A stretch of 64,000 nucleotides of DNA from Thermoanaerobaculia bacterium (GTDB lineage: Bacteria > Acidobacteriota > Thermoanaerobaculia > Multivoradales > JAGPDF01), in the NCBI GenBank assembly GCA_039932315.1, contig JBDTQG010000009.1, positions 3,969 through 67,968 of the forward strand, given 5' to 3'. This document shows, piece by piece, positions 1 to 16,256 of the stretch. Under the pieces are notes generated by a model. It saw only the letters and a list, made by a program, of their open reading frames with translations. It had not been told where the DNA came from and made no database searches. A program made the translations under genes and the position numbers. How positions within the stretch are numbered: position 1 is the first letter of the stretch; every line of letters begins with the position of its first letter.

Positions 1-1
1 C

Positions 2-1162
2 GACCGCGAAATGTCGGGCAAGGCCGATCGCGCGTTCCTCGAACGCGTCTTCCACAAGCTGATGCTCAACTTCACATGGTGGGTGAATCGCAAGGACGTC
101 GAAGGGCGGAACGTCTTTCAGGGCGGTTTTCTCGGCCTCGACAACATCGGGGTCTTCGATCGTTCCTCGGAGCTCCCGACTGGCGGACACATCGATCAGG
201 CCGACGGGACCGCGTGGATGGCGATGTATTCGCTCAACCTGATGCGCATCGCGCTCGAGCTCGCGATCGAGAATCCGGTCTACGAGGACATCGCGACCAA
301 GTTCTTCGAGCACTTCCTCTACATCGCCGCGGCGATGAAGGACCTCGGAGGGCAGGAGATCGATCTGTGGGACGACGAAGACCAGTTCTTCTACGACGTC
401 CTCCACACCGGGAACGAACCCGCCAGGCCGCTCAAGGTGCGCTCGATGGTCGGGCTCATTCCGCTTTTCGCGGTCGAGATTCTCGACGCCGATCTCCTCG
501 CCAGGCTGCCGGAGTTCTCGGCGCGTCTGCAGTGGTTTCTGGACTACCGCCCCGACCTCGCGGATCTGGTCTCCCGCTGGCATCAGCCGGGAGCGGAGGA
601 CCGGCGGCTGCTCTCGCTGCTGCGCGGGAAGCGGATGAAGGCGGTTCTGTCGCGGCTCCTCGACGAGAGCGAGTTTCTCTCCGATCACGGAGTTCGTGCG
701 CTGTCGCGTTTCCATCGCGATCATCCCTTCACCATCGAGGCCGGCGGCAGGACCTTCTCGGTCGACTATCAGCCGGGGGAGTCGAACTCGGGTCTTTTCG
801 GTGGCAACTCGAACTGGCGCGGACCGGTCTGGTTTCCGGTCAACTTCCTCATCATCGAAGCGCTGCGCCGTTTCTCGGCCTACTACGGCGAGGAGCTCAC
901 GGTCGAATGTCCCGTCGGATCGGGGAAGTACCTGTCGCTCGGGGCGGCCGCGGATGAGCTCTCTCGCCGCCTGGTGAGTCTCTTTCTGCCGAACGATCAG
1001 GGGCGCCGGCCCATTTTCGGCATCTCGGAGAAGCTCCAGACCGATCCGCACTTTCGCGACCACCTGCTCTTCTTCGAGTACTTTCACGGCGACAACGGGC
1101 GCGGTGTCGGCGCCAACCACCAGACCGGCTGGACCGGCCTCGTCGCCGAGCTCATTCGCTGA
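2..1162 (+). CDS. Glycoside hydrolase, GH63-like / MGH1-like (alpha/alpha)6 glucosidase. Only the C-terminal part is present; the 5' end lies left of the window.
   Basis: The frame is open to the window edge, and track ORF 11..1162 is only the first in-frame Met. Motifs FTWWVNRKD, GGFLGLDNIGVFDRS, DLWDDEDQFFYD, SNWRGPVWFPVNFL and FEYFHGDNGRGVGANHQTGWTG match my recollection of bacterial GH63-type glucosidases. This is a call from memory; no search was run. Confidence 0.6.
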   Translation, partial: DREMSGKADRAFLERVFHKLMLNFTWWVNRKDVEGRNVFQGGFLGLDNIGVFDRSSELPTGGHIDQADGTAWMAMYSLNLMRIALELAIENPVYEDIATKFFEHFLYIAAAMKDLGGQEIDLWDDEDQFFYDVLHTGNEPARPLKVRSMVGLIPLFAVEILDADLLARLPEFSARLQWFLDYRPDLADLVSRWHQPGAEDRRLLSLLRGKRMKAVLSRLLDESEFLSDHGVRALSRFHRDHPFTIEAGGRTFSVDYQPGESNSGLFGGNSNWRGPVWFPVNFLIIEALRRFSAYYGEELTVECPVGSGKYLSLGAAADELSRRLVSLFLPNDQGRRPIFGISEKLQTDPHFRDHLLFFEYFHGDNGRGVGANHQTGWTGLVAELIR

Positions 1163-1231
1163 GCCTGCGGTCGGCGTGCGAGAAACTGGCGCCGCCTGTC
1201 GAGCATCGAAGCGCTGACCGGGGAGAGACGC

Positions 1232-3343
1232 ATGGTGGTCGCGACGATGGCGAAGAAGGAGAAGGATCCGAAGCCGGTCGGGGAGGCGAGCGGCGGCGTG
1301 ACGATCGAGCCCGTCGTCCCGACGCGTTTCGTTGCCGCCGACGCGCTGCGCGACTTCGAGCGCGCCGCGGAACTCGAATGGCTCGAGACGAACGGACTCG
1401 GCGGCTGGGCGAGCTCGACCGTCGGAGGAGCCCATACCCGGCGCTACCACGGTCTACTCGTCGCGGCGACGCGGCCGCCGGCCGGGCGCCGCGTCCTGCT
1501 GTCCAAACTCGAGGAGACCGTGGTGCTCGCGTCCGGAAGCGGCGAACGGATCGAGCTCGGGACGAATCGCTTCCCCGGCGCCATTCATCCGCGCGGATTC
1601 GATCGGCTGGTGTCTTTCGCGCGGGATCCCTTTCCGGTTTGCGAATATGAGGACAAAGGCTTTCGGTTAAGAAAAAGAATCTGTGCCATTCATGGCGAGA
1701 ACACGGTCGTCGTGGTGTACGAGCTGCTCGAGGGCGGAGAAGGAGTAGTCCTCGAACTTCGGCCGCTCCTCGCCGGCCGCGACATTCACTCGCTCGGCCG
1801 CGCCGAGGCGTCGAGAGTCTGGACCGGCCGAGAAGTTCAGCCGGGCCCTTGCGTGCGCTTTTCGGTTGCCGCGATCGCAGCTGTCGCAGCGCGCGCAGCG
1901 AGGGAAACGGACCTCTTCATCGGGATCCGTGGCGCGACGTTTCGCCCCGAAGGCACCTGGTACTTCGACTTCGAGTACTCGGAAGAGAAAGCGCGCGGCT
2001 TCGACTACCGGGAGGACCTCTACATGCCCGGTGTGTTCTCGCTGACGCTCGAAGTCGGGCGCCCGGTCGCTGTCTTCGTCTCCACCGCCGAGCCGGCGGG
2101 GCGCGATCCGCTGCAACTGGTCGCCGCAGAGAAGATGCGCCGGGCCTGTCTCCTCGATCGTGCCGAGCTGCCGGTCAACGCCGGGCCGGGGCGCGATCTC
2201 GAGCGCCAGCTCGTCGTCGCGGCGGATCAGTTCATCGTCGCGCGAGACCTCGAGATCGGCGGCGGGTCGACGATCATTGCCGGCTACCCCTGGTTCGCGG
2301 ACTGGGGGCGCGACGCGATGATTGCGCTTCCCGGACTCTGCCTCGAAACCGGTCGAGTCGCCGAAGCACGCGAGATCCTGCGCGGCTTCGCCGATGCTGC
2401 GTCGCAGGGAATGCTGCCGAACCGCTTTCCGGAAGCGGGCGAGGCGCCCGAGTACAACACCGTGGATGCCGCTCTCTGGCTCTTCGTCACCGCGCAGCGC
2501 TACCTCGATGCGACCGGCGACGACGACTTCGTCTGCGACGCGCTGCTGCCGGTGATGGACGACATTCTCGCCTGGTACGGTCGCGGAACCCGTTACGGAA
2601 TTCAGGTCGATGGCGACGGGCTCTTGCGCGCCGGAGAGCCCGGCGTGCAGCTCACCTGGATGGACGCCAGGGTCGGCGAACGCGTGATCACGCCGCGCAC
2701 CGGGCGCCCGGTCGAGATCGAAGCGCTCTGGTACAACGCGCTGCGGATCGCGAGCACATTGCACCGGCGCTACGGCAATGCGCGGCGCGCCGCAATGGTC
2801 GGGAGTCTCGCGAAAGTCGTGCGGGCGCGGTTCGAAGATCAGTTCTGGAACGCGGAGAAGGGGGAGCTTTTCGATGTCTTGAATGGCACTGAGCGCGATC
2901 CGGCGAGCCGGCCGAATCAGCTCTACGCGCTGGCGCTGCCGCACCCGCTCCTTTCGCGGGAACACGCGTCGACGGTGCTCGACAACGTCGAGCGCAAGCT
3001 GGTGACGCCGCGTGGCCTGCGCAGTCTCGCGGCCGACGAGCCGGGCTATGTTCCGCGCTACCTCGGCGGCCCGGAGGAGCGGGATGCGGCCTACCACCAG
3101 GGAACCGTCTGGGCTTTTCTCGCCGGGATCTACGTCGACGCGCTGCTGCGCTATCGCGGCGCAGGGGGGCGGCGCCAGGCGCGCGGGTATCTGCAGGGAT
3201 TTGCCGTTCACCTCGACGAAGCCGGATTGGGCTCGGTCTCCGAGATCTTCGACGCCGAAGCCCCGCACCTGCCGCGCGGCGCCATCGCACAGGCATGGAG
3301 CGTCGCTGAGCTCCTGCGCGCACTGCGCCGGGTGTCTCCGTGA
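1232..3343 (+). CDS. Glycogen debranching enzyme (amylo-alpha-1,6-glucosidase type, GDE_N + GDE_C / GH133-like)
   Basis: 703-aa ORF. Motifs: EWLETNGLGGWASSTVGGAHTRRYHGLL (N-terminal domain), GYPWFADWGRDAMIALPGL, GMLPNRF, VQLTWMDA, PVEIEALWYNAL, YHQGTVWAF and AQAWSVAELLR. Confidence 0.8.
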   Translation: MVVATMAKKEKDPKPVGEASGGVTIEPVVPTRFVAADALRDFERAAELEWLETNGLGGWASSTVGGAHTRRYHGLLVAATRPPAGRRVLLSKLEETVVLASGSGERIELGTNRFPGAIHPRGFDRLVSFARDPFPVCEYEDKGFRLRKRICAIHGENTVVVVYELLEGGEGVVLELRPLLAGRDIHSLGRAEASRVWTGREVQPGPCVRFSVAAIAAVAARAARETDLFIGIRGATFRPEGTWYFDFEYSEEKARGFDYREDLYMPGVFSLTLEVGRPVAVFVSTAEPAGRDPLQLVAAEKMRRACLLDRAELPVNAGPGRDLERQLVVAADQFIVARDLEIGGGSTIIAGYPWFADWGRDAMIALPGLCLETGRVAEAREILRGFADAASQGMLPNRFPEAGEAPEYNTVDAALWLFVTAQRYLDATGDDDFVCDALLPVMDDILAWYGRGTRYGIQVDGDGLLRAGEPGVQLTWMDARVGERVITPRTGRPVEIEALWYNALRIASTLHRRYGNARRAAMVGSLAKVVRARFEDQFWNAEKGELFDVLNGTERDPASRPNQLYALALPHPLLSREHASTVLDNVERKLVTPRGLRSLAADEPGYVPRYLGGPEERDAAYHQGTVWAFLAGIYVDALLRYRGAGGRRQARGYLQGFAVHLDEAGLGSVSEIFDAEAPHLPRGAIAQAWSVAELLRALRRVSP

Positions 3344-4155
3344 AGAACCTTCATTGGCGCGAGTGGCTGATCGAAGCGGGCGGCCTCGGGCTCTTCATGG
3401 TCTCGGCCGGCCTTTTCGCGACGCTGCTTTTCTCGCCCGGCTCTCCGGTCTCGCACCGGATCGGGTCGCCGCTCGCGCTGCGGGCGCTGATGGGGCTCGC
3501 GATGGGGGCGACCGCGGCGGCACTGATCTATTCCCCGTGGGGACGGCGATCGGGAGCGCACTTCAATCCGGCGACGACCTGGACGTTTTACCGGCTGGGG
3601 AAAGTCGCGCCCGTCGACGCCATCGCCTATCCGATCGCGCAGTTCGCGGGTGGCCTGGCGGGGGTCGTCGCCGTTTCGCTCCTCGTCGGACGGCCGTTCG
3701 AGGAGCGACCGGTCGACTGGGTGGCGACACGACCGGGGCAGTACGGTCCCGGCGTCGCCTTTGCAGCGGAGGTGGCGATCGCCTTCATTCTGATGACCGT
3801 CGTGCTCGAGGTCTCCAATCGCCCGCGATTCGCGCGCTTCACCGGGATGTGCGCTGCGGCTCTGGTCTTCCTCGACATCACTTTCGAAGCGCCGCTCTCC
3901 GGGATGAGCCTGAATCCGGCGCGCAGCCTGGCCTCGATCGTACCGTCGATGGATTTCACCGGCGTGTGGATCTACCTCACGGCACCCCTTCTGGGAATGC
4001 TCGGTGCCGCGGAGCTCTACCGGCGATGGCCGGGGATCCGTCCGGTCCTGTGCGCGAAGCTGCACCACGACGACTCTTCGCCGTGCCCGTTTCGCTGCGG
4101 TTTCTGCCGCCACGAAACCCCGCGCGCGGAAGGCGCATCCAACTCGGCACAATGA
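3340..4155 (+). CDS. MIP-family channel (aquaporin/aquaglyceroporin-like) with a Cys/His-rich C-terminal tail
   Basis: Two NPA boxes (SGAHFNPATT and GMSLNPARS) and six hydrophobic segments. The GTG start overlaps the upstream stop (GTGA at 3340-3343). The tail is CAKLHHDDSSPCPFRCGFCRHE. Confidence 0.8.
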   Translation: MKNLHWREWLIEAGGLGLFMVSAGLFATLLFSPGSPVSHRIGSPLALRALMGLAMGATAAALIYSPWGRRSGAHFNPATTWTFYRLGKVAPVDAIAYPIAQFAGGLAGVVAVSLLVGRPFEERPVDWVATRPGQYGPGVAFAAEVAIAFILMTVVLEVSNRPRFARFTGMCAAALVFLDITFEAPLSGMSLNPARSLASIVPSMDFTGVWIYLTAPLLGMLGAAELYRRWPGIRPVLCAKLHHDDSSPCPFRCGFCRHETPRAEGASNSAQ

Positions 4156-5699
4156 GCGGAAATCGATACGACGTCGTCATCATCGGCAGCGGGGCGGGCG
4201 GCGGCACTCTCGCCTGGAAACTGGCTCCCACCGGAAAGCGGATCCTCCTCCTCGAACGCGGCGACTACGTGCGGCGCGAGCCGCAGAACTGGGATCCGCG
4301 CGCGGTGAACGTCGACGCGCGCTACAACACGAAGGAGAACTGGTCGGACAGCGCCGGCAAGCCGCTCCATCCGCACACCAACTACAACGTCGGCGGCAAT
4401 ACCAAGTTCTACGGCGCCGCGCTGTTCCGGCTGCGCGAACGGGATTTCGGCGAGCTCGCGCACAGCGGCGGCATCTCTCCTGCCTGGCCGATCTCCTACT
4501 CCGATCTGGAGCCTTACTACACTCAGGCGGAGCACCTGTACCAGGTGCATGGGGAGCGCGGAGTCGATCCGACCGACCCGTGGGGTTCGGCGCCCTACTC
4601 GCATCCGCCCGTTTCGCACGAGCCGCGCATCGCGCGCCTGGCCGCCGATCTCGAAGGCGCGGGCCTCAAGCCGTTTCCGGTGCCGCTCGGCATCCGGCTC
4701 GACGAAGGCGCCCCGCGCACGAGCCCCTGCATCCGCTGTGCGACGTGCGACGGGTTTCCCTGCCTGGTCGGCGCCAAATCGGATGCTCAGACGATGTGCG
4801 TCGATCCCGCGCTCGCGGCCCATCCGAACCTCGAGATGTGGACGGGAGCGCACGTCACGCGTCTCGAGACGGACGGCTCCGGGCGTGAAGTGACGCGCGT
4901 TCTGGTCGAGAAGGACGGCGAGACCATCCCGGTCGAGGCAGGGATCGTCGTGGTCTCTGCCGGTGCGATCAATTCTGCGGCGCTGCTCCTGCGCTCGACG
5001 TCGGAGAAGCATCCGCGCGGAGTCGCGAACGGTTCCGACGTCGTCGGCCGGCACTACATGGGTCACATCAACTCCGTCCTCATGGCGCTGTCGCTCGAAC
5101 CCAATCCGACGGTCTTCCAGAAGACGCTGGGGCTCAACGACTTCTACTTCGGCGCACGCGATTGGAACCACCCGATGGGGCACATCTCGTTCGTCGGCAA
5201 GCTCGATGCCGTGACACTTGGCGCCGGCGCGCCGCCGTTCGCGCCGGGCTGGTCGCTTGAAGCGATGGCCCGCCATTCGCTCGATTTCTGGTTGACTTCG
5301 GAGGACCTTCCCGATCCGGCGAACCGGGTCTCGCTCGACGCGCAGGGAGAAATCGTCCTGGCGTACAAACCGAACAACGAAGAGGGTCACAAGCGTCTCA
5401 TCGCGAAGCTCAAGGCGCTGATGAACACGATCGGTTGCCACGACCATCTGCTGTCCCGTTCGCTCTTCGTCGGGCAGCGGATTCCGCTCGCCGGCGTGGC
5501 GCATCAGAACGGCACGATCCGCTTCGGCGCGGAACCGGCGAGCTCCGCGCTCGATCGCGACTGCAAGGCCTGGGAGCTCGAGAATCTCTACGTCGTCGAC
5601 GGCTCTTTCTTCCCGTCCTCCGGCGCCGTGAATCCGGCGCTCACGATCATGGCGAACGCGCTGCGCGTCGGCGACCACCTGATCGAACGACTGCAGTGA
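4152..5699 (+). CDS. GMC-family FAD-dependent oxidoreductase
   Basis: Start chosen at MSGNRYDVVIIGSGAGGGTLAWKLA (Rossmann GxGxxG), ATG 4152, in frame with track ORF 3012..5699. It makes an ATGA overlap with the aquaporin stop. The C-terminal region has GTIRFG....LDRDCKAWELENLYVVDGSFFPSSGAVNPALTIMANALR, typical of the GMC C-terminal domain. Confidence 0.8.
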   Translation: MSGNRYDVVIIGSGAGGGTLAWKLAPTGKRILLLERGDYVRREPQNWDPRAVNVDARYNTKENWSDSAGKPLHPHTNYNVGGNTKFYGAALFRLRERDFGELAHSGGISPAWPISYSDLEPYYTQAEHLYQVHGERGVDPTDPWGSAPYSHPPVSHEPRIARLAADLEGAGLKPFPVPLGIRLDEGAPRTSPCIRCATCDGFPCLVGAKSDAQTMCVDPALAAHPNLEMWTGAHVTRLETDGSGREVTRVLVEKDGETIPVEAGIVVVSAGAINSAALLLRSTSEKHPRGVANGSDVVGRHYMGHINSVLMALSLEPNPTVFQKTLGLNDFYFGARDWNHPMGHISFVGKLDAVTLGAGAPPFAPGWSLEAMARHSLDFWLTSEDLPDPANRVSLDAQGEIVLAYKPNNEEGHKRLIAKLKALMNTIGCHDHLLSRSLFVGQRIPLAGVAHQNGTIRFGAEPASSALDRDCKAWELENLYVVDGSFFPSSGAVNPALTIMANALRVGDHLIERLQ

Positions 5700-5727
5700 T
5701 CGGTGCTGCCGGATTCTGGAGACTGAA

Positions 5728-6397
5728 ATGAAATCTCCAGCTCGTGTCTTCCGCCTCGCTGTGCTGCAGCTTCTTTTCTGCACCTCTCTCTTCGGCGCTT
5801 CTCCGCGCGTCGCGGCGATCGGCATCACCGTTGCGGATCTCGATCGTTCGATCGCCTTCTTCACGAGCCTCCTCGACTTCCATCGGGTCGGTGAGACGCG
5901 CGAGGTCTCGGGCGACGCCTATGAGCATCTGACCGGAGTCTTCGGCGCGCATTCGAAAATCGCGACCATATGCCTCGGCACAGAATGCCTCGAGCTCACC
6001 GATTTCTTGGCTCCCGAGGGGCGGCGGTGCGGAAAACTGGGGAACGGAGCAGGAGCACCTCAATCAGGTTTTCGGCGCCCGCCTCGCGATCACCGGCCTT
6101 CATGGAGCAGCGGCGCCGGGAGCGATCGGAGTCGAATTTCTCGAATATCTGGCGCCCTCGAACGGCCGGCCGACGCCCGCCGACGTCGCCGCGAACGATC
6201 TCGCCAGCTGGTACGTGCGGCTCGCCGTCGAAAAGGACGTGAGTCTGGACACCCTGGCACGAGCGGCGCGGTCCGCCGGAGGGCGATGGGTTTCGCCCGG
6301 GCCGGTCGCCGTCGGCGAGGACGCCCGACTCGGCTATCGTAGCGGCGTGTTGCTGCGCGATCCGGACGGCCACGCGGTTCTGCTCTCCGCGCCCTGA
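5728..6397 (+). pseudogene. Secreted VOC/glyoxalase-family protein, reading frame disrupted (frameshift near 6015-6030) or an assembly error
   Basis: Frame 1 (5728..) gives a signal peptide plus a VOC-like module (IGITVADLDRSIAFFTSLLDF...CLELTDFLAPEGR). It then degenerates into Arg-rich nonsense. Frame 2 is open from 5933. It gives a sensible continuation (HLNQVFGARLAITGL...GVEFLEYLAPSNGRPTPADVAANDLASWYVRLAV...GVLLRDPDGHAVLL) ending at 6397. Confidence 0.5.
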
Positions 6398-6432
6398 AAG
6401 ACTCGCATTTCCTCCGGGACGGGAGTTTTCCG

Positions 6433-7158
6433 ATGTTCGATTTTTCGCAGAAGGTAGCCGTGGTGACGGGAGCCTCCGGAGCGCTGGGGGCCGTCGTCGC
6501 GCGGCGGCTGTTCGAGAGCGGCGGGCGTCTCGCACTCATCGACCGCAGCGCGGATCGCCTGCCGGCGCTGTGGCCGGAGGCCGCATCGGCGCCCGAGCGC
6601 GTCTCGTTTCACTCCTGCGATCTTGCCGATGCGGACGCGGTTTCCCGCGTGATCGCGGAGATCTCCGGAGAGTTCGGAGCGATCGATCATGTCTTCAACA
6701 TCGCGGGGGCGTATCGCGGCGGCGAAACGATCGAGACCGCGACGGAAGCGACCTGGAAGCTCCTCTGGGAGGCGAACTTTCTCTCGACGCACAACGTCTG
6801 TCGCGCGGTGATCGCCGGCAGCTCCGGCATGCGCCGCCGCGGCAGCGGCTCGATCGTCAATGTCGGCTCCAAAGCGTCGCTCGCCGGAGATGCCGGCGCG
6901 GGCCCCTACAGCATTGCAAAGACCGCCGTCGTCCGGCTCACCGAGACGCTGGCCGCCGAGCTCAAGCGCGAAGGCGTGCGCGTGAACGCCGTTCTTCCGG
7001 GAACGATCGACACACCGGCGAACCGGCACGCCATGCCCGACGCCGATCCGCGCACCTGGGTCGAAGCGGAGGCGCTCGCCGACGCGATGCTCTTCCTCGC
7101 GTCGCCGCTCGCGCGCGCGGTCACCGGAGTTGCGCTCCCGGTCTTCGGGCTGGGTTGA
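6433..7158 (+). CDS. Short-chain dehydrogenase/reductase (SDR) family oxidoreductase
   Basis: VAVVTGASGALG (TGxxxGxG), NIAG, GSKAS...YSIAK (YxxxK) and PGTIDTP. Confidence 0.85.
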   Translation: MFDFSQKVAVVTGASGALGAVVARRLFESGGRLALIDRSADRLPALWPEAASAPERVSFHSCDLADADAVSRVIAEISGEFGAIDHVFNIAGAYRGGETIETATEATWKLLWEANFLSTHNVCRAVIAGSSGMRRRGSGSIVNVGSKASLAGDAGAGPYSIAKTAVVRLTETLAAELKREGVRVNAVLPGTIDTPANRHAMPDADPRTWVEAEALADAMLFLASPLARAVTGVALPVFGLG

Positions 7159-8829: not shown

Positions 8830-9014
8830 GCCGACTCGCACCACGCCGTCGGAGGCTGCAATCGGCGCCCTGACGTTCGTCGCTTCCGTCGCTCCCGTCG
8901 CTGGACTCGTTGTCGCACTTCCGTAGCTCCAGCGACTCCGCTGAAACCTTCGGCCTCCGGCCGGCATCGAAGCTCCGATTCTTCACGGACTTTCATCCGA
9001 GATCGGAGCTGCAT

Positions 9015-9419
9015 ATGGTCGTCCTCAGTCCCGCGGCGAAGCGCCTCAGCTGGTTTCTGCGAATCGTCGTGGCGGCGATTCTCGTGCAGACGCTCTATTT
9101 CAAATTCACCGCCGCGCCCGAGTCGGTGTACATCTTTTCGAAGCTCGGGCTCGAACCGGCGGGGCGGATCGGCTCCGGCGTCGCCGAGCTCGTCGCGGCC
9201 ACTCTCCTGCTCATTCCGTCGACCGTCGCGATCGGTGCGCTGCTCGCCCTCGGCGTCATCTCCGGCGCGCTCGTCTCGCACCTGACGAAACTCGGCATCG
9301 AGGTTCAGGGGGACGGCGGCCTGCTCTTCGGGCTCGCCTGCGCCGTCTTCGTCGGCAGCGCGATCGTTCTCTGGCTGCATCGCGTCGACCTGCCGCTCAT
9401 CGGTCGACGGCTGGGCTGA
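9015..9419 (+). CDS. DoxX-family integral membrane protein
   Basis: Start taken at the internal ATG 9015 (MVVLSPAAKRLSWFLRIVVAAILVQT...), in frame with track ORF 8910..9419. Four hydrophobic helices. The part upstream of 9015 is non-protein-like. Confidence 0.6.
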   Translation: MVVLSPAAKRLSWFLRIVVAAILVQTLYFKFTAAPESVYIFSKLGLEPAGRIGSGVAELVAATLLLIPSTVAIGALLALGVISGALVSHLTKLGIEVQGDGGLLFGLACAVFVGSAIVLWLHRVDLPLIGRRLG

Positions 9420-9512: not shown

Positions 9513-11252
9513 TCAGGGAGGCGAAAGAGTCAGCGTGAGGGAATTGCCGTCGGCTCCGCCCGGCGTCAGGCTCGCGACCTGGATTCCGGTCCGGGCGAGG
9601 TCGATGACGACATGGATCTCGTTGCCGTTCGTCGTGACGTGGAAGCCCGTCCGGACGCCTTTGACCAGCGCGCCAGAACCGCGCGGCGCCGCGCCGCGAT
9701 ACGGATTCTCCATCCCCTTCAACTTGATCAGCACCCGCGGATTGTCGCCGCCGATCTCGGAATAACTGAAGGCACCGGAGCTGAACCCACCGTCGCCGGT
9801 GAGAACCATGGCGGTTTCCCCGGTCCCGCCGGGCGCGTCGCTCCACCGAATGCCGTTGAGAGTGCGGGCCGGTCGGGCGGGTGCGGCGACGGGCGCCATC
9901 CCGGTGGACGGAGTCGCCGCGGGTCGCGGAGCGGGAGCTGCAGGAGCCGGTACTGCGGCGGCAGCCGGCGTCGGCGGAACGGGTGCCGACGACGGCGGGA
10001 TGTCGCTGACGGTGTTGGCGGCGTTGGCGGTGTTGACGGTGTTGGCAGGGCCGGTGGAGCCGGTCGCGGCGGCGGCGACGTCGGACGCCTCCGCGGAAGA
10101 ATCTTCCGGCGGCGGAGAGGTAGCTCCGGCGCGCGGCGGTTTGGCGGCTGCGGAGACGGCTGTCGGATCGACTCCGACCTGCTGCACGAGCGTCGTTCCC
10201 GGGGCTGGCGCAGCGGTGAGCGGTTCGCTGGCGGGCACGCGTGCCGGTGGCGCGGTCTGCGGAGCCGGAGCGGCGACGACGGCCTGGGCCGGTTTGGCAC
10301 TCTCGCCCAGGAGCTCGGCTCCCCAACGCATCCAGGCGAGGTAGCTTCCGCCGCCGAAGAGAGCGAGGACCAGGGCGATCTTCACCCAGGGCGCGCTCTC
10401 GCGCTCGCTCGACTTGGCCGCCGCGGAAGCCAGCATGGGCAGCGCCGGCTCTTCGCGGAGCGCTGCGCGGACGATGTCGGCCGTCTGTGGATCGGCTTCG
10501 TCCAGAGGCGAGAAGACGGAGAACGGGCGGGTTTCGGCGAGATACGGATCGGCTTCGGGCTGCGGCGGAAGCCCCTGCAGGGCGTCGAAGTCGAGTGGAC
10601 TGGTGTCGCGGGGATCGCTTGGCGGAGCGAAGGAGTCGCCGGGGGCCGGCGCAGCCATTTCGTCGCGCCGGGCCACGCGCGCAGCGCCAGGCGACGTGAG
10701 CGTTTCACTGAGCGCGTCTTCATTCGATTCCGCAGCGGATTCCGCTGCGGGACCCGGGGCTGACTCCGCCATGGCCTCCGGACGATGGAGCGGACTCTGA
10801 GCAGCGCGTCCGCGGTCGACGGGCGGCAGCTGCGAGGCATCGGCAACGTAGGTGAACCCGCTCGAGTCGAGAAGCGAATCTTCCGCGAGCGACTGTTCCA
10901 GATACTCGAACAGGGCTTCGGCGATGTGGTCACGGCTCTGCGTATCAAGCTGCAGGAAGCGGATGCCGACGCCGGCCGGCTGTCCCGGACCGAGATAGCG
11001 GTCGCGCACCCAGACGACTTCACCGGCGCCCTGCACCGGTTTCCGTTCGGCTCCGAGATTGAACTCGAAAACCAGCTGCGTCCCGAGCGGCGGAGGCGAC
11101 GGATGCTTGACGAACATTCCGGTCGCCGAGACATTGGCCGCGAAGCCGTTCTGATAGGCAACGGTGCCCTGGAAATGCAGGCGGACGACCGCGTCGAGCG
11201 GCATCCGGGTGGAGCGCTGAAACTCGCCGGCGATCTGGTCTTCGGACTCCAT
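9513..11252 (-). CDS. PilZ-domain (TIGR02266-like) / Pro-Ala-rich linker / single TM / C-terminal AMIN-domain protein
   Basis: The N-terminus (RMPLDAVVRLHF...NVSATGMFVKH...GAGEVVWVRD...GVGIRFLQLD) resembles the myxobacterial PilZ subfamily. The TM segment is WVKIALVLALFGGGSYLAWM. The C-terminus (LNGIRWSD...NPRVLIKLKG...VKGVRTGFH...IHVVIDLAR...LTLTL) fits the AMIN pattern. Confidence 0.6.
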   Translation of the reverse strand: MESEDQIAGEFQRSTRMPLDAVVRLHFQGTVAYQNGFAANVSATGMFVKHPSPPPLGTQLVFEFNLGAERKPVQGAGEVVWVRDRYLGPGQPAGVGIRFLQLDTQSRDHIAEALFEYLEQSLAEDSLLDSSGFTYVADASQLPPVDRGRAAQSPLHRPEAMAESAPGPAAESAAESNEDALSETLTSPGAARVARRDEMAAPAPGDSFAPPSDPRDTSPLDFDALQGLPPQPEADPYLAETRPFSVFSPLDEADPQTADIVRAALREEPALPMLASAAAKSSERESAPWVKIALVLALFGGGSYLAWMRWGAELLGESAKPAQAVVAAPAPQTAPPARVPASEPLTAAPAPGTTLVQQVGVDPTAVSAAAKPPRAGATSPPPEDSSAEASDVAAAATGSTGPANTVNTANAANTVSDIPPSSAPVPPTPAAAAVPAPAAPAPRPAATPSTGMAPVAAPARPARTLNGIRWSDAPGGTGETAMVLTGDGGFSSGAFSYSEIGGDNPRVLIKLKGMENPYRGAAPRGSGALVKGVRTGFHVTTNGNEIHVVIDLARTGIQVASLTPGGADGNSLTLTLSPP

Positions 11253-11265
11253 CTGGCGAACTAGT

Positions 11266-12303
11266 TTACGACGAAAGCTTTTCCCAGTCCGCCTCGTCCG
11301 CGTCGAGCGCGATGGCGAGTCCGCCGTTCGAGCCGGCGAAAACCGGATCCTCGACCGTGATCACCTTCCCGCCGCCGATTTCCGCGAGGGTTTTTTCGAG
11401 CGCGCCGGCCAGTCCGCGGATCCGCGAGCCGCGGCCGGAGAGAATGACGTTCTTGCGCACGCGCTCCTGAAACTCGGGCTCTACGGCCGCGAGAAGATCG
11501 AGCATCGTCTCGGAGAACGGCGCGACCAGGCTCTCGCAGGCGAGCCGCAGCTCGTCGGTGATGTCGACCTTCTGCGCTTTGCCCTGCGACGGCGCAGAGA
11601 CCATGACCTTCTCCTTCTGCTCGCCGATGAATCCGTGCTCTTCCTTCCAGCCGCGTACCATGTGCTGCGAGAACTGAATCTCCGGATGGCGCTCGGCGAT
11701 GAGCTTGCCGAGGAGATCGTCGACGGAATCGCCGGCCTTGGTGAGTGTGCGCTGATCCTCTTCGCCGGGGTAGTGACCCTTCATGACGCAGAAGTCCGTC
11801 GTGCCGGCGCCGATGTCGATGATCAGCGTGTGGAGCAGGGCTTCGATGCCGTAGGCCACGGCGAACGGTTCCGAAACGATGATCAGTCCGTCGACCATCC
11901 CCTTCATCACCTGGCGCAGCTGCTGCTTGTTGACCCGCAGCGTTTCAGCCGGAACGCCGACCACCGCACGGACCTTCGGCTCCTTGTCTTCTCCGGCGCC
12001 GACGGCCGAAGTCGCGAGACCGATGAGGTGACCGAGGATCTCCTTGACCGCCGCGATGTCCTTTTCCGAGCCTTCCTTGATCAGGCCCTGCTCGAGCGGA
12101 CGATGGAGGTCGAGGACGCTCCGGTTCTCGATTGCCTCGGCACCGATCATCACGGCCTTCTTGACGACCTTGCGGGCCACCATGTCGACCGGCCAACCGA
12201 CGTAGCTGTCGACCACGAAACGGCCGCCGGACGACGTCGAGATGGCGCTCTGGGAGGTCCCCAGATCGATCCCGACGGATAGATATCGCTCTTTTGCGCT
12301 CAT
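11266..12303 (-). CDS. MamK-like bacterial actin (actin/Hsp70 superfamily filament protein)
   Basis: Start at ATG 12303 (MSAKERYLSVGIDLGTSQSA), in frame with track ORF 11266..13197. It shows near-colinear similarity to my recollection of MamK: GIDLGTS, VGVPA, VSEPFAVAYG, IIDIGAGTTDFCVMKG..PGEEDQRTLTKAG, ERHPE, LSGRGSRIRGLA and DPVFAGSNG. No mreC/mreD follow it. Confidence 0.7.
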   Translation of the reverse strand: MSAKERYLSVGIDLGTSQSAISTSSGGRFVVDSYVGWPVDMVARKVVKKAVMIGAEAIENRSVLDLHRPLEQGLIKEGSEKDIAAVKEILGHLIGLATSAVGAGEDKEPKVRAVVGVPAETLRVNKQQLRQVMKGMVDGLIIVSEPFAVAYGIEALLHTLIIDIGAGTTDFCVMKGHYPGEEDQRTLTKAGDSVDDLLGKLIAERHPEIQFSQHMVRGWKEEHGFIGEQKEKVMVSAPSQGKAQKVDITDELRLACESLVAPFSETMLDLLAAVEPEFQERVRKNVILSGRGSRIRGLAGALEKTLAEIGGGKVITVEDPVFAGSNGGLAIALDADEADWEKLSS

Positions 12304-13382
12304 CGTTGTCTCTCTCCTTCGGCCAGATGTTCCGTCGCCTGAGAGTATGCCCGAATTCCGTCGAAAAGCGCGCGCGCCAGGCGCTCCCGGTAGTCGGCCT
12401 GCGCGAGAAGTCGTGCCTCCTCGGGACTCGACAGCGAAGCAACCTCGGCGAGAATCGCGGGCATGTCGGTTTCCACGAGGACGATGAAGGGCGCCGAGCG
12501 CACGCCGCGATCGCGCACGTCGTGGCTCACTTCGCGAACCGTCGAGAGCAGGCGCTGCTGAACCGCCGCGGCGAGGCGGCGCGACTCCTGCTGCCGGAGG
12601 TCGCTGTAGATCCCGTCGAGAAGTTTGCGCACGTCGGCGAGCCCGTAGCCCGATTCCCGGTTTTCGGCGCTCGCGAGCTCGGTGACGAACGGATCGTCCG
12701 AGGGTCCGAGGTAGTAGGTCTCGATCCCGCGGTTGGCGCGCCCGTCCTTGAACCAGTTGACGTGGATCGAGACGAAGAGGTCGGCGTGGGCCTGATTGGC
12801 GAAGCGGACCCGGTCGCGCAGAAAGAGCTTGCTGTCCGTGTCGCGCGTCATCCGCACGTCGAAGCCCGCTTGCATGAGGAGCAACGCCAGACGCTGCCCG
12901 ATGTCGAGGGTGAGGATCTTCTCCGTCAGGCCGACCGGAGTCTTGGTCCCTTCGTCCGTCCCGCCGTGGCCGGGATCGATGACGATGCGGTGAACGGCGA
13001 GCGGAAAGAGCCGCGACGGGAGACGCGTCGGAATGTTCCCCACCGGCGGGTCGATCTCCGGCAGGACGAGCGGCGAGAGCGCCGAAGGGTCGGAACCGGG
13101 CGAAGCCGGGCCGGTCGCGCTGGGAAGTGCGCCTCGCGATGGATCGAGCGCGCCCTGGACGGCGGGACGGGCCGGCGGACGCAGCCAGATCGACCACAAG
13201 GCGACGGCGATGGCGCCGATGCCGCCGACGACCGCGAGCGCCGGCAGAAGCCAGCGCGCGAGCGGCGGGCGGCGGTGGAGCTTGCCGCGCGGCAGATTCT
13301 GGATGGCGCGAAGGTTCTCGTCGACGGCGCCGGCGAGGAGCCGGCGCTTCAGTTTCGGATCGAGAGCTCGACCGCTCCTCAG
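12300..13382 (-). CDS. Membrane-anchored N-acetylmuramoyl-L-alanine amidase (Amidase_3, AmiA/B/C type); start codon uncertain
   Basis: Motifs VIDPGHGGTDEG, DLFVSIHVN, GIETYY and DMPAILAEVASLS. The N-terminal TM segment is WLLPALAVVGGIGAIAVALWSIW. The stop overlaps the MamK-like ATG (ATGA at 12300-12303). No in-frame ATG/GTG/TTG lies between the upstream stop and the TM segment. The feature end is set at a CTG that forms a CTGA overlap with the upstream stop. Confidence 0.7.
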   Translation of the reverse strand: MRSGRALDPKLKRRLLAGAVDENLRAIQNLPRGKLHRRPPLARWLLPALAVVGGIGAIAVALWSIWLRPPARPAVQGALDPSRGALPSATGPASPGSDPSALSPLVLPEIDPPVGNIPTRLPSRLFPLAVHRIVIDPGHGGTDEGTKTPVGLTEKILTLDIGQRLALLLMQAGFDVRMTRDTDSKLFLRDRVRFANQAHADLFVSIHVNWFKDGRANRGIETYYLGPSDDPFVTELASAENRESGYGLADVRKLLDGIYSDLRQQESRRLAAAVQQRLLSTVREVSHDVRDRGVRSAPFIVLVETDMPAILAEVASLSSPEEARLLAQADYRERLARALFDGIRAYSQATEHLAEGERQR

Positions 13383-14950
13383 TCGGCGTCTTTCTGCAGG
13401 CGTTGGAGCGCGGCGGCCAGTGCGCCCATGCCGGTCGACTTCTTCGCCTGCTTGAGGAACGACTGATAGTCGGACTTCGAACCCTCGAGAGTCTTGCCTT
13501 CGATCGTCAGCGAGATGCGCTTCTTGCGCGTATCGACCTGTGCCACCTGCAGTGTCACCTTCTTGCCGATGCCGTAGGTCCGTCCGACGTTCGCTCCCTT
13601 GGGAAGCCCCATCTCGGAGGCCGGAAGCAGCCCGGTGAGGCCCGGCTCGAGCAGAATGAAAGCGCCGAATTTCTCGACCTTCTCGACCGTTCCGATCACC
13701 TTCGCGCCCTCGGCATAGCGGGTCTCGACGCCCTCCCAGGGATTGCCCTGCGGGGTTTCGCGCAGCGCGAGCGAAATGCGCTTCCGCGCGAGATCGACTT
13801 CCCGCACCCAGCCTTCGAGCATCTCGCCGGGAGCGAGCTTCGGATCTTCGGCCTTCATGCCCGGCGCGAGCTGCGACACGTGCAGAAGACCTTCGACTCC
13901 GGGCGCCACTTCGACGAACCACCCGAACTCGGACTTCCGCATGACCTTGCCGGTGAACTTGTCGCCATTGGCGAACTGCGACGACACGCTCTGCCACGGA
14001 TCGGGTTCGAGCGCCTTCATCGACAGCGAAACGCGGTCGCCGCCCTTGGGCAGCTTGATGATCTTGGCGGTGACTTCGTCGCCGACCTTGAGCACCTCAT
14101 TCGGATGTTCGACGCGCGAGCGCTTGATCTCGGAGACGTGAATCAGTCCCTCGATGCCTCCGAGATCGACGAACGCGCCGAAGTCGGTGAGCGAGATCAC
14201 CTTGCCGGTCACCGTCGAACCGAGCGTGAGCGCGGCGCGGGATTCCGCAGTCTTGTGCGCCTTCTCGTCCCGCAGAACCGCGGCGTGGGAGACCACCAGA
14301 CGGTGTCCCTTCTCCTCGACGCGCAGAACGCGGAAGAGAAAACTCTGGTCGAGGTACTGCGCGGGCTCCTTGGGAGCGCCGAGCTCCATCGAAGAGCGCG
14401 GACAGAACGACGTGATGCCGTCGACGACGACATGAAAGCCGCCCTGGTTCCAGCCGATGACCTTGCCCTCGACATACGCCTGGTTGGCGATCGCGGTGCG
14501 GACGAGATCACTCGGAACGAGAGCGAGCTCCTCCGGCGTCGGGGCGACGAACTCGTCGACCGACTTGCCGGTGGGACGATGACGCTTGTCGCGCGGCTTC
14601 CGGTCGACCTTGTCACCCTTGGGACGCGCGCCCGCCTTCTTCTCGCGCGGCGCTCCGCCCTCTCCCCGCGACTTCGCCGCGGCCGGAGCCGCCGGTGTCG
14701 CGACGCCCGCCTCAGGTGCGGCCGCCACGGGCGTTCCCTCCGCACCGGCCGCTGCCGCGACGGAAGCGCTCGGGGCGGTCTCGGGGGTCGACGGGGTCTC
14801 AGGTACCTCAGCGACCTCAGTGACCTCAGTGACCTCAGCCATCTCAGTGACCTCAGCGGCGGCTACGGCGGCAGTGGAGCCCTTTTCGGACCCGGATTCG
14901 GGGTGCGTGGGCGTTTCGGACGCGATGGGGCTGTTCTCGAGCTCGGACAT
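13379..14950 (-). CDS. S1 RNA-binding-domain protein (four S1 repeats, rpsA-like) with a ~150-aa disordered acidic/basic N-terminal extension
   Basis: Four S1-like modules: GKVIGWNQGGFHVVVDG, GKVISLTDFGAFVDLGGIEGLIHVSE, GKVMRKSEFGWFVEV..GVEGLLHVSQ and GTVEKVEKFGAFILL. Start chosen at ATG 14950, with GGAG 7 nt upstream. ATG 14965 is an alternative. This is not the canonical 6-domain S1 architecture. Confidence 0.65.
   Translation of the reverse strand: MSELENSPIASETPTHPESGSEKGSTAAVAAAEVTEMAEVTEVTEVAEVPETPSTPETAPSASVAAAAGAEGTPVAAAPEAGVATPAAPAAAKSRGEGGAPREKKAGARPKGDKVDRKPRDKRHRPTGKSVDEFVAPTPEELALVPSDLVRTAIANQAYVEGKVIGWNQGGFHVVVDGITSFCPRSSMELGAPKEPAQYLDQSFLFRVLRVEEKGHRLVVSHAAVLRDEKAHKTAESRAALTLGSTVTGKVISLTDFGAFVDLGGIEGLIHVSEIKRSRVEHPNEVLKVGDEVTAKIIKLPKGGDRVSLSMKALEPDPWQSVSSQFANGDKFTGKVMRKSEFGWFVEVAPGVEGLLHVSQLAPGMKAEDPKLAPGEMLEGWVREVDLARKRISLALRETPQGNPWEGVETRYAEGAKVIGTVEKVEKFGAFILLEPGLTGLLPASEMGLPKGANVGRTYGIGKKVTLQVAQVDTRKKRISLTIEGKTLEGSKSDYQSFLKQAKKSTGMGALAAALQRLQKDAD
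14803..14856 (-). repeat. Six tandem 9-bp units (NNACCTCAG on the plus strand) inside the S1-domain gene, encoding (E-V-T)-like triplets
   Basis: Read directly: gtacctcag cgacctcag tgacctcag tgacctcag ccatctcag tgacctcag. They translate on the minus strand as AEVTEMAEVTEVTEVAEV. Confidence 0.9.
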
Positions 14951-15107: not shown

Positions 15108-16256
15108 GTGAACGCTAGACTTCCGGCCTTGCGATTCGCCTGGTTCGTCACTCCCCACGGCTTCGGCCATGCGGCTCGATCGGCTGCGGTCATCGAGGCC
15201 CTGGGCGAGGAAATGCCTGAGGCCGAGGTCGATCTCTGGACCTCCGTTCCCCTCTGGTTTTTTGAAGAGTCGATCACCGTTCCGTTCGGTTATCGCCCTC
15301 TGCGCTGCGACGTCGGTCTCGTTCAGAAAAACCCGATCGAGGAGGATGTCGAGGCGTCGCTCCAGGCGCTCGCCGACTTCTGGAAATCGGCCGATGGGCA
15401 GGGCCCGGAGTCGATCGCGGCGATCTCCGCGCAGGTCGTCGCTTCGGGGGCGGGCGCGGTCGTCTGCGACATCGCTCCGTTCGGCCTCGAGGTCGCGCGC
15501 CGCGCCGGGCTGCCGGCGGTACTGATCGAGAACTTCACCTGGGACTGGATCTACGCTGCGCTCGCTCCGGCAGAGCCGCGGTTTCTCCCCTGGGCACGAG
15601 AGCTCGCGCGGCGCGGAATGCCGCGGAAGGCGCGCACTCTTCATCTGCAGCTCGAACCCGTGTGCCGGGCCGCGAGCGGCGCGATTCCGCTGCCGCTGGT
15701 GGCGCGCTCGCCAAGGCTTTCCCGCAGCGAGGTCGCCTCGCGCCTCGGGATTGAAGCGTCGCAGGCGATCGTGCTGGTGAGCTTCGGTGGCGTCGCGCAC
15801 CGGCTGACGAGCTCCGCGAGATTCGGCGAGATTCCCGACGCGACGTTCGTGCTCCTCGGGGCGAGTGAAGAGGAGCGCTGGGAGGCGAACGTCCGCCGGC
15901 TGCCGCACCACTCACCGATCTATCACCCCGACCTCGTCGCTGCGGCCGATGTCGTCGTCGGCAAGCTCGGCTATTCGACGGTCGCGGAGGCGGTGACGGC
16001 CGGCGCCCGGCTCATGTTCGTCCCGCGACCCGGATTCGCCGAATCCGAGGTTCTCGAGCGTTACGTCGAAACGCGGGTACCGGTCGCGCGGATTTCGCTC
16101 GCCGAGCTCGAGAGCGGCGCCTGGGTCGAACGCCTGCCGGCGCTTCTCGCGCACGAGCGCCTGCAGGCGCAGTTTCCGCCGCCGACGGCCGGTGGAAGGT
16201 GCGGTGCTCGCGTCGCCGCGGATCGCATCATCCGCTGGTGGAAAAATCTGTCGTAG
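15108..16256 (+). CDS. GT1/GT28-like glycosyltransferase (MurG/UDP-glycosyltransferase fold)
   Basis: GTG start. The N-terminus FVTPHGFGHAARSAAVIEAL and the C-terminus VVGKLGYSTVAEAVTAGARLMFVPR resemble the GT-B glycosyltransferase family that includes the N-terminal domain of plant arabinokinase-like proteins. Confidence 0.5.
   Translation: MNARLPALRFAWFVTPHGFGHAARSAAVIEALGEEMPEAEVDLWTSVPLWFFEESITVPFGYRPLRCDVGLVQKNPIEEDVEASLQALADFWKSADGQGPESIAAISAQVVASGAGAVVCDIAPFGLEVARRAGLPAVLIENFTWDWIYAALAPAEPRFLPWARELARRGMPRKARTLHLQLEPVCRAASGAIPLPLVARSPRLSRSEVASRLGIEASQAIVLVSFGGVAHRLTSSARFGEIPDATFVLLGASEEERWEANVRRLPHHSPIYHPDLVAAADVVVGKLGYSTVAEAVTAGARLMFVPRPGFAESEVLERYVETRVPVARISLAELESGAWVERLPALLAHERLQAQFPPPTAGGRCGARVAADRIIRWWKNLS

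Follow-up and report, generated by a model that had tools for sequence, protein, structure and literature searches.

The question raised by this locus is whether four closely packed genes, found on the minus strand of a 64,000-nucleotide (nt) stretch of DNA from a Thermoanaerobaculia bacterium (hereafter the window, meaning the whole stretch), act as a single machine or whether only some of them belong together. The four co-oriented open reading frames (ORFs) occupy positions 9513 to approximately 14965 and encode an S1-domain protein, an Amidase_3 protein, an actin-like protein and a protein with a PilZ domain. An earlier note on this DNA had described them as one unit in which cyclic di-GMP (c-di-GMP) is linked to cytoskeleton-guided cleavage of peptidoglycan, and the ORF coordinates confirm that the genes lie back to back on one strand. 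Comparison of the gene neighbourhoods across genomes indicates, however, that the conserved unit is a two-gene module consisting of the amidase and a MamK-type actin, and that the gene encoding the PilZ protein, which also carries an AMIN-like domain, is a lineage-specific accessory.

The evidence for the pairing comes from the best 80 of more than 574 relatives, obtained in a scan based on the actin alignment with one genome taken per species (GTDB); the neighbouring genes in these 80 loci were found by tblastn and hidden Markov model (HMM) searches. The amidase gene is located immediately upstream of the actin gene and on the same strand in 79 of the 80 loci, and in the sole exception (L034) the actin gene lies 86 nt from the end of the contig. 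The spacing between the two genes ranges from -17 to +82 nt with many stop/start overlaps, and one locus (L005) seems to be frameshifted. The loci represent Thermoanaerobaculia, Holophagales/Holophagae, Methylomirabilota/Rokubacteria, Binatia and metagenome-assembled genomes (MAGs) labelled "Deltaproteobacteria", hence at least four phyla, and the pair occurs once per genome across whole classes. Beyond the 80 loci it was found in P0225 (locus L081), where the actin is 48% identical to that of the window and the amidase gene is again upstream, and in P0240 (L087), where the actin is 41% identical, the upstream amidase gene overlaps it by stop and start codons and the amidase itself is 47% identical to the one in the window. 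P0228 and P0230, with actins 43% identical, have no amidase in their context.

All-against-all clustering of the ORFs from the 80 loci revealed no third conserved gene, only the amidase and the actin. The gene following the actin varies in distant loci (ligA, an alpha/beta hydrolase, chorismate mutase and others). A cluster of ORFs from 56 loci, considered as a conserved neighbour, turned out to contain antisense ORFs chained to short-chain dehydrogenases/reductases (SDRs). Two putative fusions were also rejected: the 862-amino-acid (aa) actin-PilZ product of P0172 is an artefact with an out-of-frame junction, and the fusion of an amidase C-terminus to an actin in P0105 is a mis-call. The tie between actin and wall hydrolase proposed earlier is thus borne out by adjacency across phyla and by frequent stop/start overlap, and a functional coupling of the two proteins is very probable.

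The features of the core pair are listed below with their coordinates in the window.

12300..13382, minus strand: bitopic AmiA-type N-acetylmuramoyl-L-alanine amidase, core gene 1, start uncertain (Pfam Amidase_3, PDB matches)
13302..13358, minus strand: conserved N-terminal amphipathic helix of the amidase, predicted to be cytoplasmic, aa 9-27, KLKRRLLAGAVDENLRAIQNL; proposed actin docking site (alignment A3, AlphaFold2 model)
13185..13262, minus strand: predicted transmembrane (TM) helix (aa 41-66) of the amidase; a Pro-rich periplasmic linker (aa 68-116), predicted to be disordered, comes next (AlphaFold2 model)
12351..12986, minus strand: Amidase_3 catalytic domain including an AmiA/B/C-type regulatory insertion, approximately aa 231-266 (Pfam, PDB alignment, fold match)
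11266..12303, minus strand: core gene 2, an actin-like ATPase of the MamK family and of the amidase-linked clade (NCBIfam, PDB 5LJW)

The amidase stop codon and the actin start codon form an ATGA overlap at 12300-12303, and a gap of 13 nt separates the actin gene from the PilZ gene; both junctions are exactly as given in the earlier note.

The actin-like protein matches the NCBIfam model of MamK (NF040964) over its full length (residues 8-344) with 377.1 bits (E 6.9e-113), short of the curated cut-off of 400 bits. The score against the BeeR model (NF053558) was 199.9 bits with a cut-off of 530, and the MreB models gave 55 bits (cut-off 293) and 46 bits (cut-off 366). Pfam reported MreB_Mbl (7e-17), and weak matches to DnaK/HscA appeared among the NCBIfam results. 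The best PDB match, 5LJW (268 bits), is the MamK of M. magneticum and is colinear with the protein over its whole length; BeeR (8R2N, 137 bits) came second. The ATPase motifs align with those of 5LJW, namely GIDLGTS (phosphate 1), IIDIGAGTTD (phosphate 2) and GRGSRIRGL (adenosine), together with the catalytic Glu in VSEPF. The core of the protein begins at residue 8 and the disordered N-terminal extension of 30-50 aa seen in BeeR is absent. In a neighbour-joining (NJ) tree the amidase-linked actins formed one clade, with the P0240 group as its sister, and M. magneticum (AMB-1) MamK was placed in a different clade. The protein thus belongs, within the MamK superfamily, to a subfamily of its own that is associated with amidases and separate from the magnetosome MamK, and it presumably polymerises with ATP under the inner membrane. 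The view that it resembles MamK rather than MreB was correct (377 bits for MamK vs 200 for BeeR and 55 for MreB), and the NCBIfam and PDB scores speak against a position inside canonical MreB. The absence of mreC/mreD and of magnetosome (mam) genes within approximately 10 kb, also reported earlier, was confirmed.

The closest homologues of the actin are encoded in MAGs of Thermoanaerobaculia (Acidobacteriota) and carry the annotation "rod shape-determining protein MreB". Among 1.8 billion representatives clustered at 50% identity, only 813 relatives were found at E <=0.001. In many MamK-like representatives that are 38-42% identical to the actin (P0236, P0238, P0241, P0245, P0247, P0249-P0251) the actin domain is the C-terminal part of a protein of 700-1232 aa, and their N-terminal extensions of 150-900 aa contain neither an amidase nor any other Pfam domain.

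The product of the upstream gene was identified as an amidase by Pfam (Amidase_3, 163.7 bits, 5.6e-48), and the zinc ligands H139, E154 and H207 as well as the catalytic E313 are invariant in the alignment of the amidases (A3). In the PDB, E. coli AmiA (8C2O) comes closest in both sequence and fold, and the protein aligns to it in one stretch running through the regulatory insertion (residues 231-266); the amidases that lack an insertion, 4RN7 and 5EMI, align in two pieces and skip it. In the AlphaFold2 model residues 215-248, covering part of the insertion, have a predicted local distance difference test (pLDDT) score below 50. The presence of the regulatory insertion implies that the amidase is probably autoinhibited and in need of an activator. 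Scores remained under all equivalog cut-offs (AmiA 104 of 400 bits, AmiB 76 of 532, AmiC 91 of 700, CwlD 113 of 222), and by this sequence measure the amidase is a subfamily separate from AmiA, AmiB, AmiC and CwlD. No AMIN domain was detected in it by Pfam, as the earlier note had stated.

The strongest clue to the mechanism, overlooked in the earlier note, is an invariant motif in the predicted cytoplasmic N-terminus of the amidase. At the extreme N-terminus of all paired amidases the pattern M-x(4-9)-R-[LV]-K-R-x-L-L-x-x-A-V-x-[ED]-N-[LV]-x-x-I-x-x-x-P-(P)-R is found, and in alignment A3 the residues L11, L16, A19, N23, R25, N29, P31 and L35 are invariant. The TM helix and the periplasmic linker that follow are poorly conserved, unlike the motif. 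A degenerate version, RQAVLRAVGEDNRAL, is still recognisable in the amidase of L081. The AlphaFold2 model comprises a helix at 9-27, which is amphipathic, a 26-residue helix at 41-66, a disordered segment at 68-116 (pLDDT below 50) and the catalytic domain; a hydrophobic segment is present at the matching position in the amidases of most loci. The membrane anchor recognised earlier is therefore supported by the predicted 26-residue TM helix. A Tat signal of the kind present in E. coli AmiA and AmiC was rejected as a general feature, since the basic residues ahead of the helix are not a conserved RR (KR, RA and RT occur) and the helix is 26 residues long.

A conserved S-[IV]-N-A-[IF]-S closes the hydrophobic segment of the amidases in one subclade (L015, L019, L020, L056, L079 and others).

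The motif also bears on where the amidase of the window begins. In its reading frame there is no ATG, GTG or TTG between 13997 and the conserved motif. The candidate starts are CTG 13382, which forms a CTGA with the stop codon of the S1 gene, and CTG 13352; only the former lies upstream of the motif and, with no ATG, GTG or TTG in that interval, it is the only plausible start. The 4-nt overlap between the S1 and amidase genes described earlier exists only if CTG 13382 is used. What lies behind the missing canonical start is a sequence error, reinitiation or initiation at a non-canonical codon. In the closest relatives the amidase begins with GTG approximately 20 codons upstream of the motif and in most others with ATG 5-9 codons upstream. 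The public gene call for the window amidase starts inside the TM helix and predicts 299 aa in comparison to 345-381 aa in relatives; this call is mis-started.

The features of the remaining two genes are as follows.

9513..11252, minus strand: accessory PilZ-TM-AMIN-like protein, 579 aa (Pfam, NCBIfam, AlphaFold2/Foldseek)
10908..11216, minus strand: PilZ domain, aa 13-115 (Pfam PilZ, 3.3e-13)
10323..10388, minus strand: predicted single TM helix of the PilZ protein, aa 289-310, hydrophobic stretch WVKIALVLALFGGGSYLAWMRW (sequence)
9516..9866, minus strand: AMIN-like eight-stranded beta-sandwich, predicted, aa 463-579 (AlphaFold2, Foldseek)
13379..14950 or 14965, minus strand: S1-domain protein with four S1 domains behind an acidic low-complexity N-terminus (Pfam)

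The protein encoded downstream of the actin consists of a PilZ domain, a long disordered linker, a TM helix, a Pro/Ala-rich linker and a C-terminal AMIN-like beta-sandwich. The N-terminal PilZ domain proposed earlier was confirmed by Pfam (PF07238, 50.3 bits, cut-off 22.5); TIGR02266 gave 61 bits, below its cut-off of 68.7. The (D/N)xSxxG motif is intact (N40-V-S-A-T-G45). The nearest PilZ domains in the PDB, matched weakly (E approximately 0.1), bear the deposition title 'type IV fimbriae assembly protein'; these are the Xanthomonas and Pseudomonas PilZ proteins, which are not known to bind c-di-GMP. With the PilZ domain in the cytoplasm, one TM helix and the C-terminal domain beyond the Pro/Ala-rich linker, this last domain should reach the periplasm.

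The last 117 residues form a well-conserved domain (alignment A2), which the earlier note had called AMIN-like. Profile methods did not recover it as such: Pfam AMIN (PF11741) did not match the window protein at E <=10 and matched one of 22 homologous C-terminal domains (E=0.26), precomputed PF11741 annotation was present in none of 100 homologues of the PilZ protein, a profile search of the PDB with the domain returned nothing significant, and hhalign against the AMIN domain of E. coli AmiC gave a probability of 1%. The AlphaFold2 model of the domain has eight strands, a pLDDT of 93 and a predicted template modelling score (pTM) of 0.86. With this model, Foldseek found only two significant matches in the PDB, AmiC (4BIN, E 4.5e-4, TMq 0.62) and PilQ of M. 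xanthus (3JC8, E 1.2e-3, TMq 0.71), both spanning the whole domain (116-121 columns); the next match had an E value of 0.48. AmiC and PilQ are the classic carriers of AMIN domains, and the aligned part of the 4BIN and 3JC8 chains is presumably the AMIN domain, given that the model is all-beta. The earlier assignment thus stands at the level of the predicted fold and fails in both the Pfam and the hhalign comparisons. Like AMIN, the domain may bind peptidoglycan.

These data are combined in the following model, to which we incline by analogy with known polymer-guided systems. The two genes would constitute a module in which an actin filament docks on the N-terminal helix of the amidase and thereby patterns peptidoglycan cleavage. 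The amidase would be a type-II membrane-anchored enzyme whose first approximately 30 residues form a cytoplasmic amphipathic helix. Since a periplasmic enzyme has no other need of an invariant cytoplasmic peptide, something in the cytoplasm is expected to read this tail, and in the simplest model the reader is the actin, the only cytoplasmic protein that is universally co-encoded and translationally coupled with the amidase. Binding of the filament to the helix would concentrate or align the amidase at defined places, so that the catalytic domain, held on a flexible Pro-rich tether, would cleave stem peptides from the glycan only there, for cell separation or local remodelling of the wall. Binding of a short protein tail to a polymer has precedents in the C-terminal helix of ParR on ParM and the N-terminal tail of FtsN on FtsA. 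The specific docking of the filament on the amidase tail is given an even chance; filament formation, direct contact of tail and filament and the cellular site of action are what we infer from the data above.

In the lineage of the window the PilZ protein would span the membrane in the same manner, with the PilZ domain inside as a possible c-di-GMP input or contact to the filament. The AMIN-like fold outside would probably supply the wall targeting that AmiC carries in cis, or anchor the filament to a landmark in the wall. Extended to the whole clade of MamK-family actins in Acidobacteriota, Methylomirabilota, Binatia and relatives, the model would describe a dedicated cell-wall cytoskeleton that holds the amidase by its tail and decides where the wall is cut, wired in some lineages to a PilZ sensor and a trans-acting AMIN-like anchor; this wider version is put forward tentatively, at somewhat less than an even chance.

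Several observations weigh against this reading. The NJ tree that separates the amidase-linked actins carries no support values, all the loci come from MAGs of uncultured bacteria, and the amidase of the window lacks a canonical start codon ahead of the very motif on which the docking depends. The S-[IV]-N-A sequence of the one subclade could be compatible with a signal peptidase site, and cleavage there would free the enzyme from the filament. As for the accessory protein, no copy of its gene was found within 8 kb in 64 of the 80 loci; its PilZ domain, like that of all orthologues encoded downstream of the actin, has R-S-T-R or R-A-T-R (RxxR; R13 and R16 in the window) and not the canonical RxxxR; and its C-terminal domain is AMIN-like by fold only, being no member of Pfam AMIN, a likeness for which predicted structure is the sole support.

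The four-gene machine of the earlier note, in which c-di-GMP would gate wall cleavage guided by the cytoskeleton and carried out with the S1 protein, the amidase, the actin and the PilZ-AMIN-like protein, was considered as an alternative. The genes are contiguous and co-oriented, and a consensus scan of the cluster for promoters and terminators detected nothing above chance, including no internal terminator. With plus-strand genes on either side of it (8910..9419 and 15108..16256), the cluster comprises at most four genes. The same order is kept in relatives whose actin is at least 69% identical and in L090, so the four-gene arrangement does recur. The unit is nevertheless dissolved by the wider comparison: most loci that keep the amidase-actin pair lack the S1 and PilZ genes. 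Of the 80 loci, 16 have the PilZ-TM-AMIN-like gene; it lies downstream of the actin in the 13 closest (L001-L013, actin at least 69% identical) and in L078, and upstream of the amidase in L046 and L054. The S1 gene adjoins the amidase only in the closest relatives (L002-L013, actin at least 69% identical) and in L090, and the other loci lack it. In these close relatives, L090 included, even carB is syntenic, so the S1 linkage carries little weight and may reflect recent common ancestry. The signalling part of the claim is only partly supported by the significant PilZ HMM match and the (D/N)xSxxG motif: RxxxR (as RDSRR or RDSKR), also combined with NxSxxG, is found only in the divergent copies of L046 and L054, and the window lineage has RxxR and has weak PDB neighbours among presumed non-binders. 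Binding of c-di-GMP by the window domain is, from its sequence, uncertain, and a four-gene machine controlled by this messenger seems unlikely.

An actin fold does not necessarily mean a filament, and the actin-like protein could be a cytoplasmic ATPase or chaperone that reads the N-terminus of the amidase precursor and controls its insertion, export or activation. The position of the conserved peptide at the extreme N-terminus, just ahead of a segment resembling a signal anchor, would fit such a role, and so would the autoinhibitory insertion, which calls for some activator. Other Amidase_3 enzymes are activated by dedicated partners (LytH by ActH, CwlD by GerS, AmiA/B by FtsEX-EnvC), and partner-dependent Amidase_3 structures are among the fold matches of the window amidase. 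The actin fold is moreover shared with Hsp70, to which the DnaK/HscA matches relate. Against this, the actin aligns end to end (268 bits) with the filament-forming MamK, all characterised members of the MamK/BeeR branch polymerise, among them its nearest characterised relative BeeR (PMC11929497), and a single TM helix continued by a disordered tether would be a poor conduit for allosteric activation. This alternative, too, is rated as having little probability in comparison with a filament that holds the amidase.

It is less probable still that the two genes are merely inherited and expressed together, with the filament positioning some other cargo and the amidase acting as an ordinary division amidase. 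MamK-like proteins do occur in many unrelated contexts, such as a Che cluster (L082) and the vicinity of bactofilin and ParAB genes (L085). However, the amidase is the one neighbour of the actin that does not change, staying beside it in 79 of 80 loci, and the adjacency persists down to 41% identity; stop/start overlaps are frequent, and the family-specific cytoplasmic motif would be needless in an ordinary periplasmic amidase. A mobile or phage-derived lysis/partition cassette, combining an endolysin-type amidase with a segregation actin of the ParM/Alp type, is hardly credible in spite of PHROGs endolysin matches to the amidase (3e-29) and a weak partition-protein match to the actin (1e-6), since these matches are generic family resemblance, the flanking genes are housekeeping (carB, ligA, RNase H) with no defence-system match of note, the pair occurs once per genome across whole classes, and the amidase resembles AmiA, has the regulatory insertion and is membrane-anchored.

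In L082 (P0227; genes 1-4507) the MamK-like actin is 44% identical to that of the window and is encoded between CheA/CheW, CheC, CheD and another CheC/CheX gene, and in L085/L086 (P0230) another MamK-like actin has a bactofilin gene and parB-parA-gidB as neighbours at a distance of approximately 1.5-3.5 kb.

For the favoured two-gene module the closest experimentally established parallel comes from Hyphomonas neptunium and Rhodospirillum rubrum, where the bactofilin BacA binds the cytoplasmic N-terminus of a bitopic M23 hydrolase, LmdC (PMC10945521). In 226 species bacA and lmdC are neighbouring genes; the dissociation constant of LmdC residues 1-38 for BacA is approximately 15 uM, and the tail and TM helix are sufficient for recruitment by the polymer (PMC10945521). 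In both cases a polymer gene adjoins the gene for a bitopic peptidoglycan hydrolase and the adjacency is kept across phyla; the amidase and LmdC also share their layout, with a conserved short stretch in the cytoplasm at the N-terminus, a single TM helix, a periplasmic spacer and a catalytic domain in this order. The differences are that the polymer is here a nucleotide-dependent MamK-type actin, the enzyme belongs to Amidase_3 and not to M23, and the tail is predicted to be a helix in contrast to the beta-hairpin of LmdC.

Magnetosome MamK (5LJW/5JYG) is the closest solved homologue, and its nucleotide-binding motifs and catalytic Glu are retained. Unlike it, the amidase-linked actins occur in non-magnetotactic hosts with no magnetosome genes nearby, fall in a separate NJ clade and have an amidase as partner. 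BeeR, a three-stranded tubular actin of Verrucomicrobiota with unknown function (PMC11929497, PDB 8R2N), is another MamK-related actin of non-magnetotactic bacteria with no assigned role. It is defined by its disordered N-terminal extension of 30-50 aa, and the function of MamK relatives in non-magnetotactic bacteria is stated to be unknown (PMC11929497). The window actin differs from it in the score (200 bits vs the cut-off of 530), in the missing extension and in its amidase, no such partner having been reported for BeeR.

Like AmiA, AmiB and AmiC, the division amidases of E. coli that work with EnvC/NlpD, the amidase is an Amidase_3 enzyme with a regulatory insertion, and in AmiC an AMIN-type fold serves wall targeting. 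The E. coli enzymes, however, are soluble in the periplasm after export, with AMIN in cis in AmiC, whereas here the enzyme is predicted to be membrane-tethered with a conserved cytoplasmic tail and the AMIN-like fold is found on the PilZ protein. In B. subtilis the actin homologue MreBH dictates the site at which the wall hydrolase LytE acts, but LytE is secreted and is not encoded beside mreBH. LytH of S. aureus is, similarly to the present amidase, a membrane-anchored Amidase_3 enzyme and needs a dedicated partner (PDB 7TJ4 was among the fold matches); that partner, ActH, is a polytopic membrane protein and not an actin.

Full-text searches of the literature returned no description of a MamK-like actin paired with an amidase, nor of a MamK-like actin in these taxa. 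The concept of a cytoskeletal element acting with a bitopic hydrolase is known; this pairing, the tail motif and the trans-acting AMIN-like/PilZ accessory appear to be undescribed. One large clade of MamK-like actins gains a concrete partner and a candidate binding peptide of approximately 20 residues. If the model is true, this would be the third polymer to steer a wall hydrolase across the membrane, after MreBH-LytE and bactofilin-LmdC, and the first such case with an amidase and a MamK-type actin, giving the MamK branch a new cellular role. It would also mean that the targeting function of AMIN can be supplied by a separate protein, and would give access to the cell biology of soil phyla about which little is known. 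Two annotations should be corrected in any case: the relatives of the actin named MreB and the start of the window amidase in the public gene call.

The genes within approximately 10 kb of the cluster are carB and those for RNase H, an SDR, an FG-GAP protein and a galactose-oxidase-like protein. A protein of approximately 540 aa, encoded upstream of the amidase in 15 of the 80 loci (in L021 at 5187-6812), could be a neighbour specific to a subclade.

The S1-domain protein scored below every rpsA cut-off of NCBIfam, which makes it a paralogue and not ribosomal protein S1 itself. Its gene is probably co-transcribed with that of the amidase, and it is only a neighbour, outside the conserved module. 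The N-terminus (14560-14950, minus strand) comprises approximately 140 acidic low-complexity residues with short EVTE-type repeats (EVTEMAEVTEVTEVAEVPE). In one long-read MAG (L091, 3792-5902) the gene call joins the ORFs of S1 and amidase into one product of 568 aa, and the site of the actin holds only an ORF of 135 aa, an arrangement that is probably due to frameshift errors or possibly represents a decayed copy.

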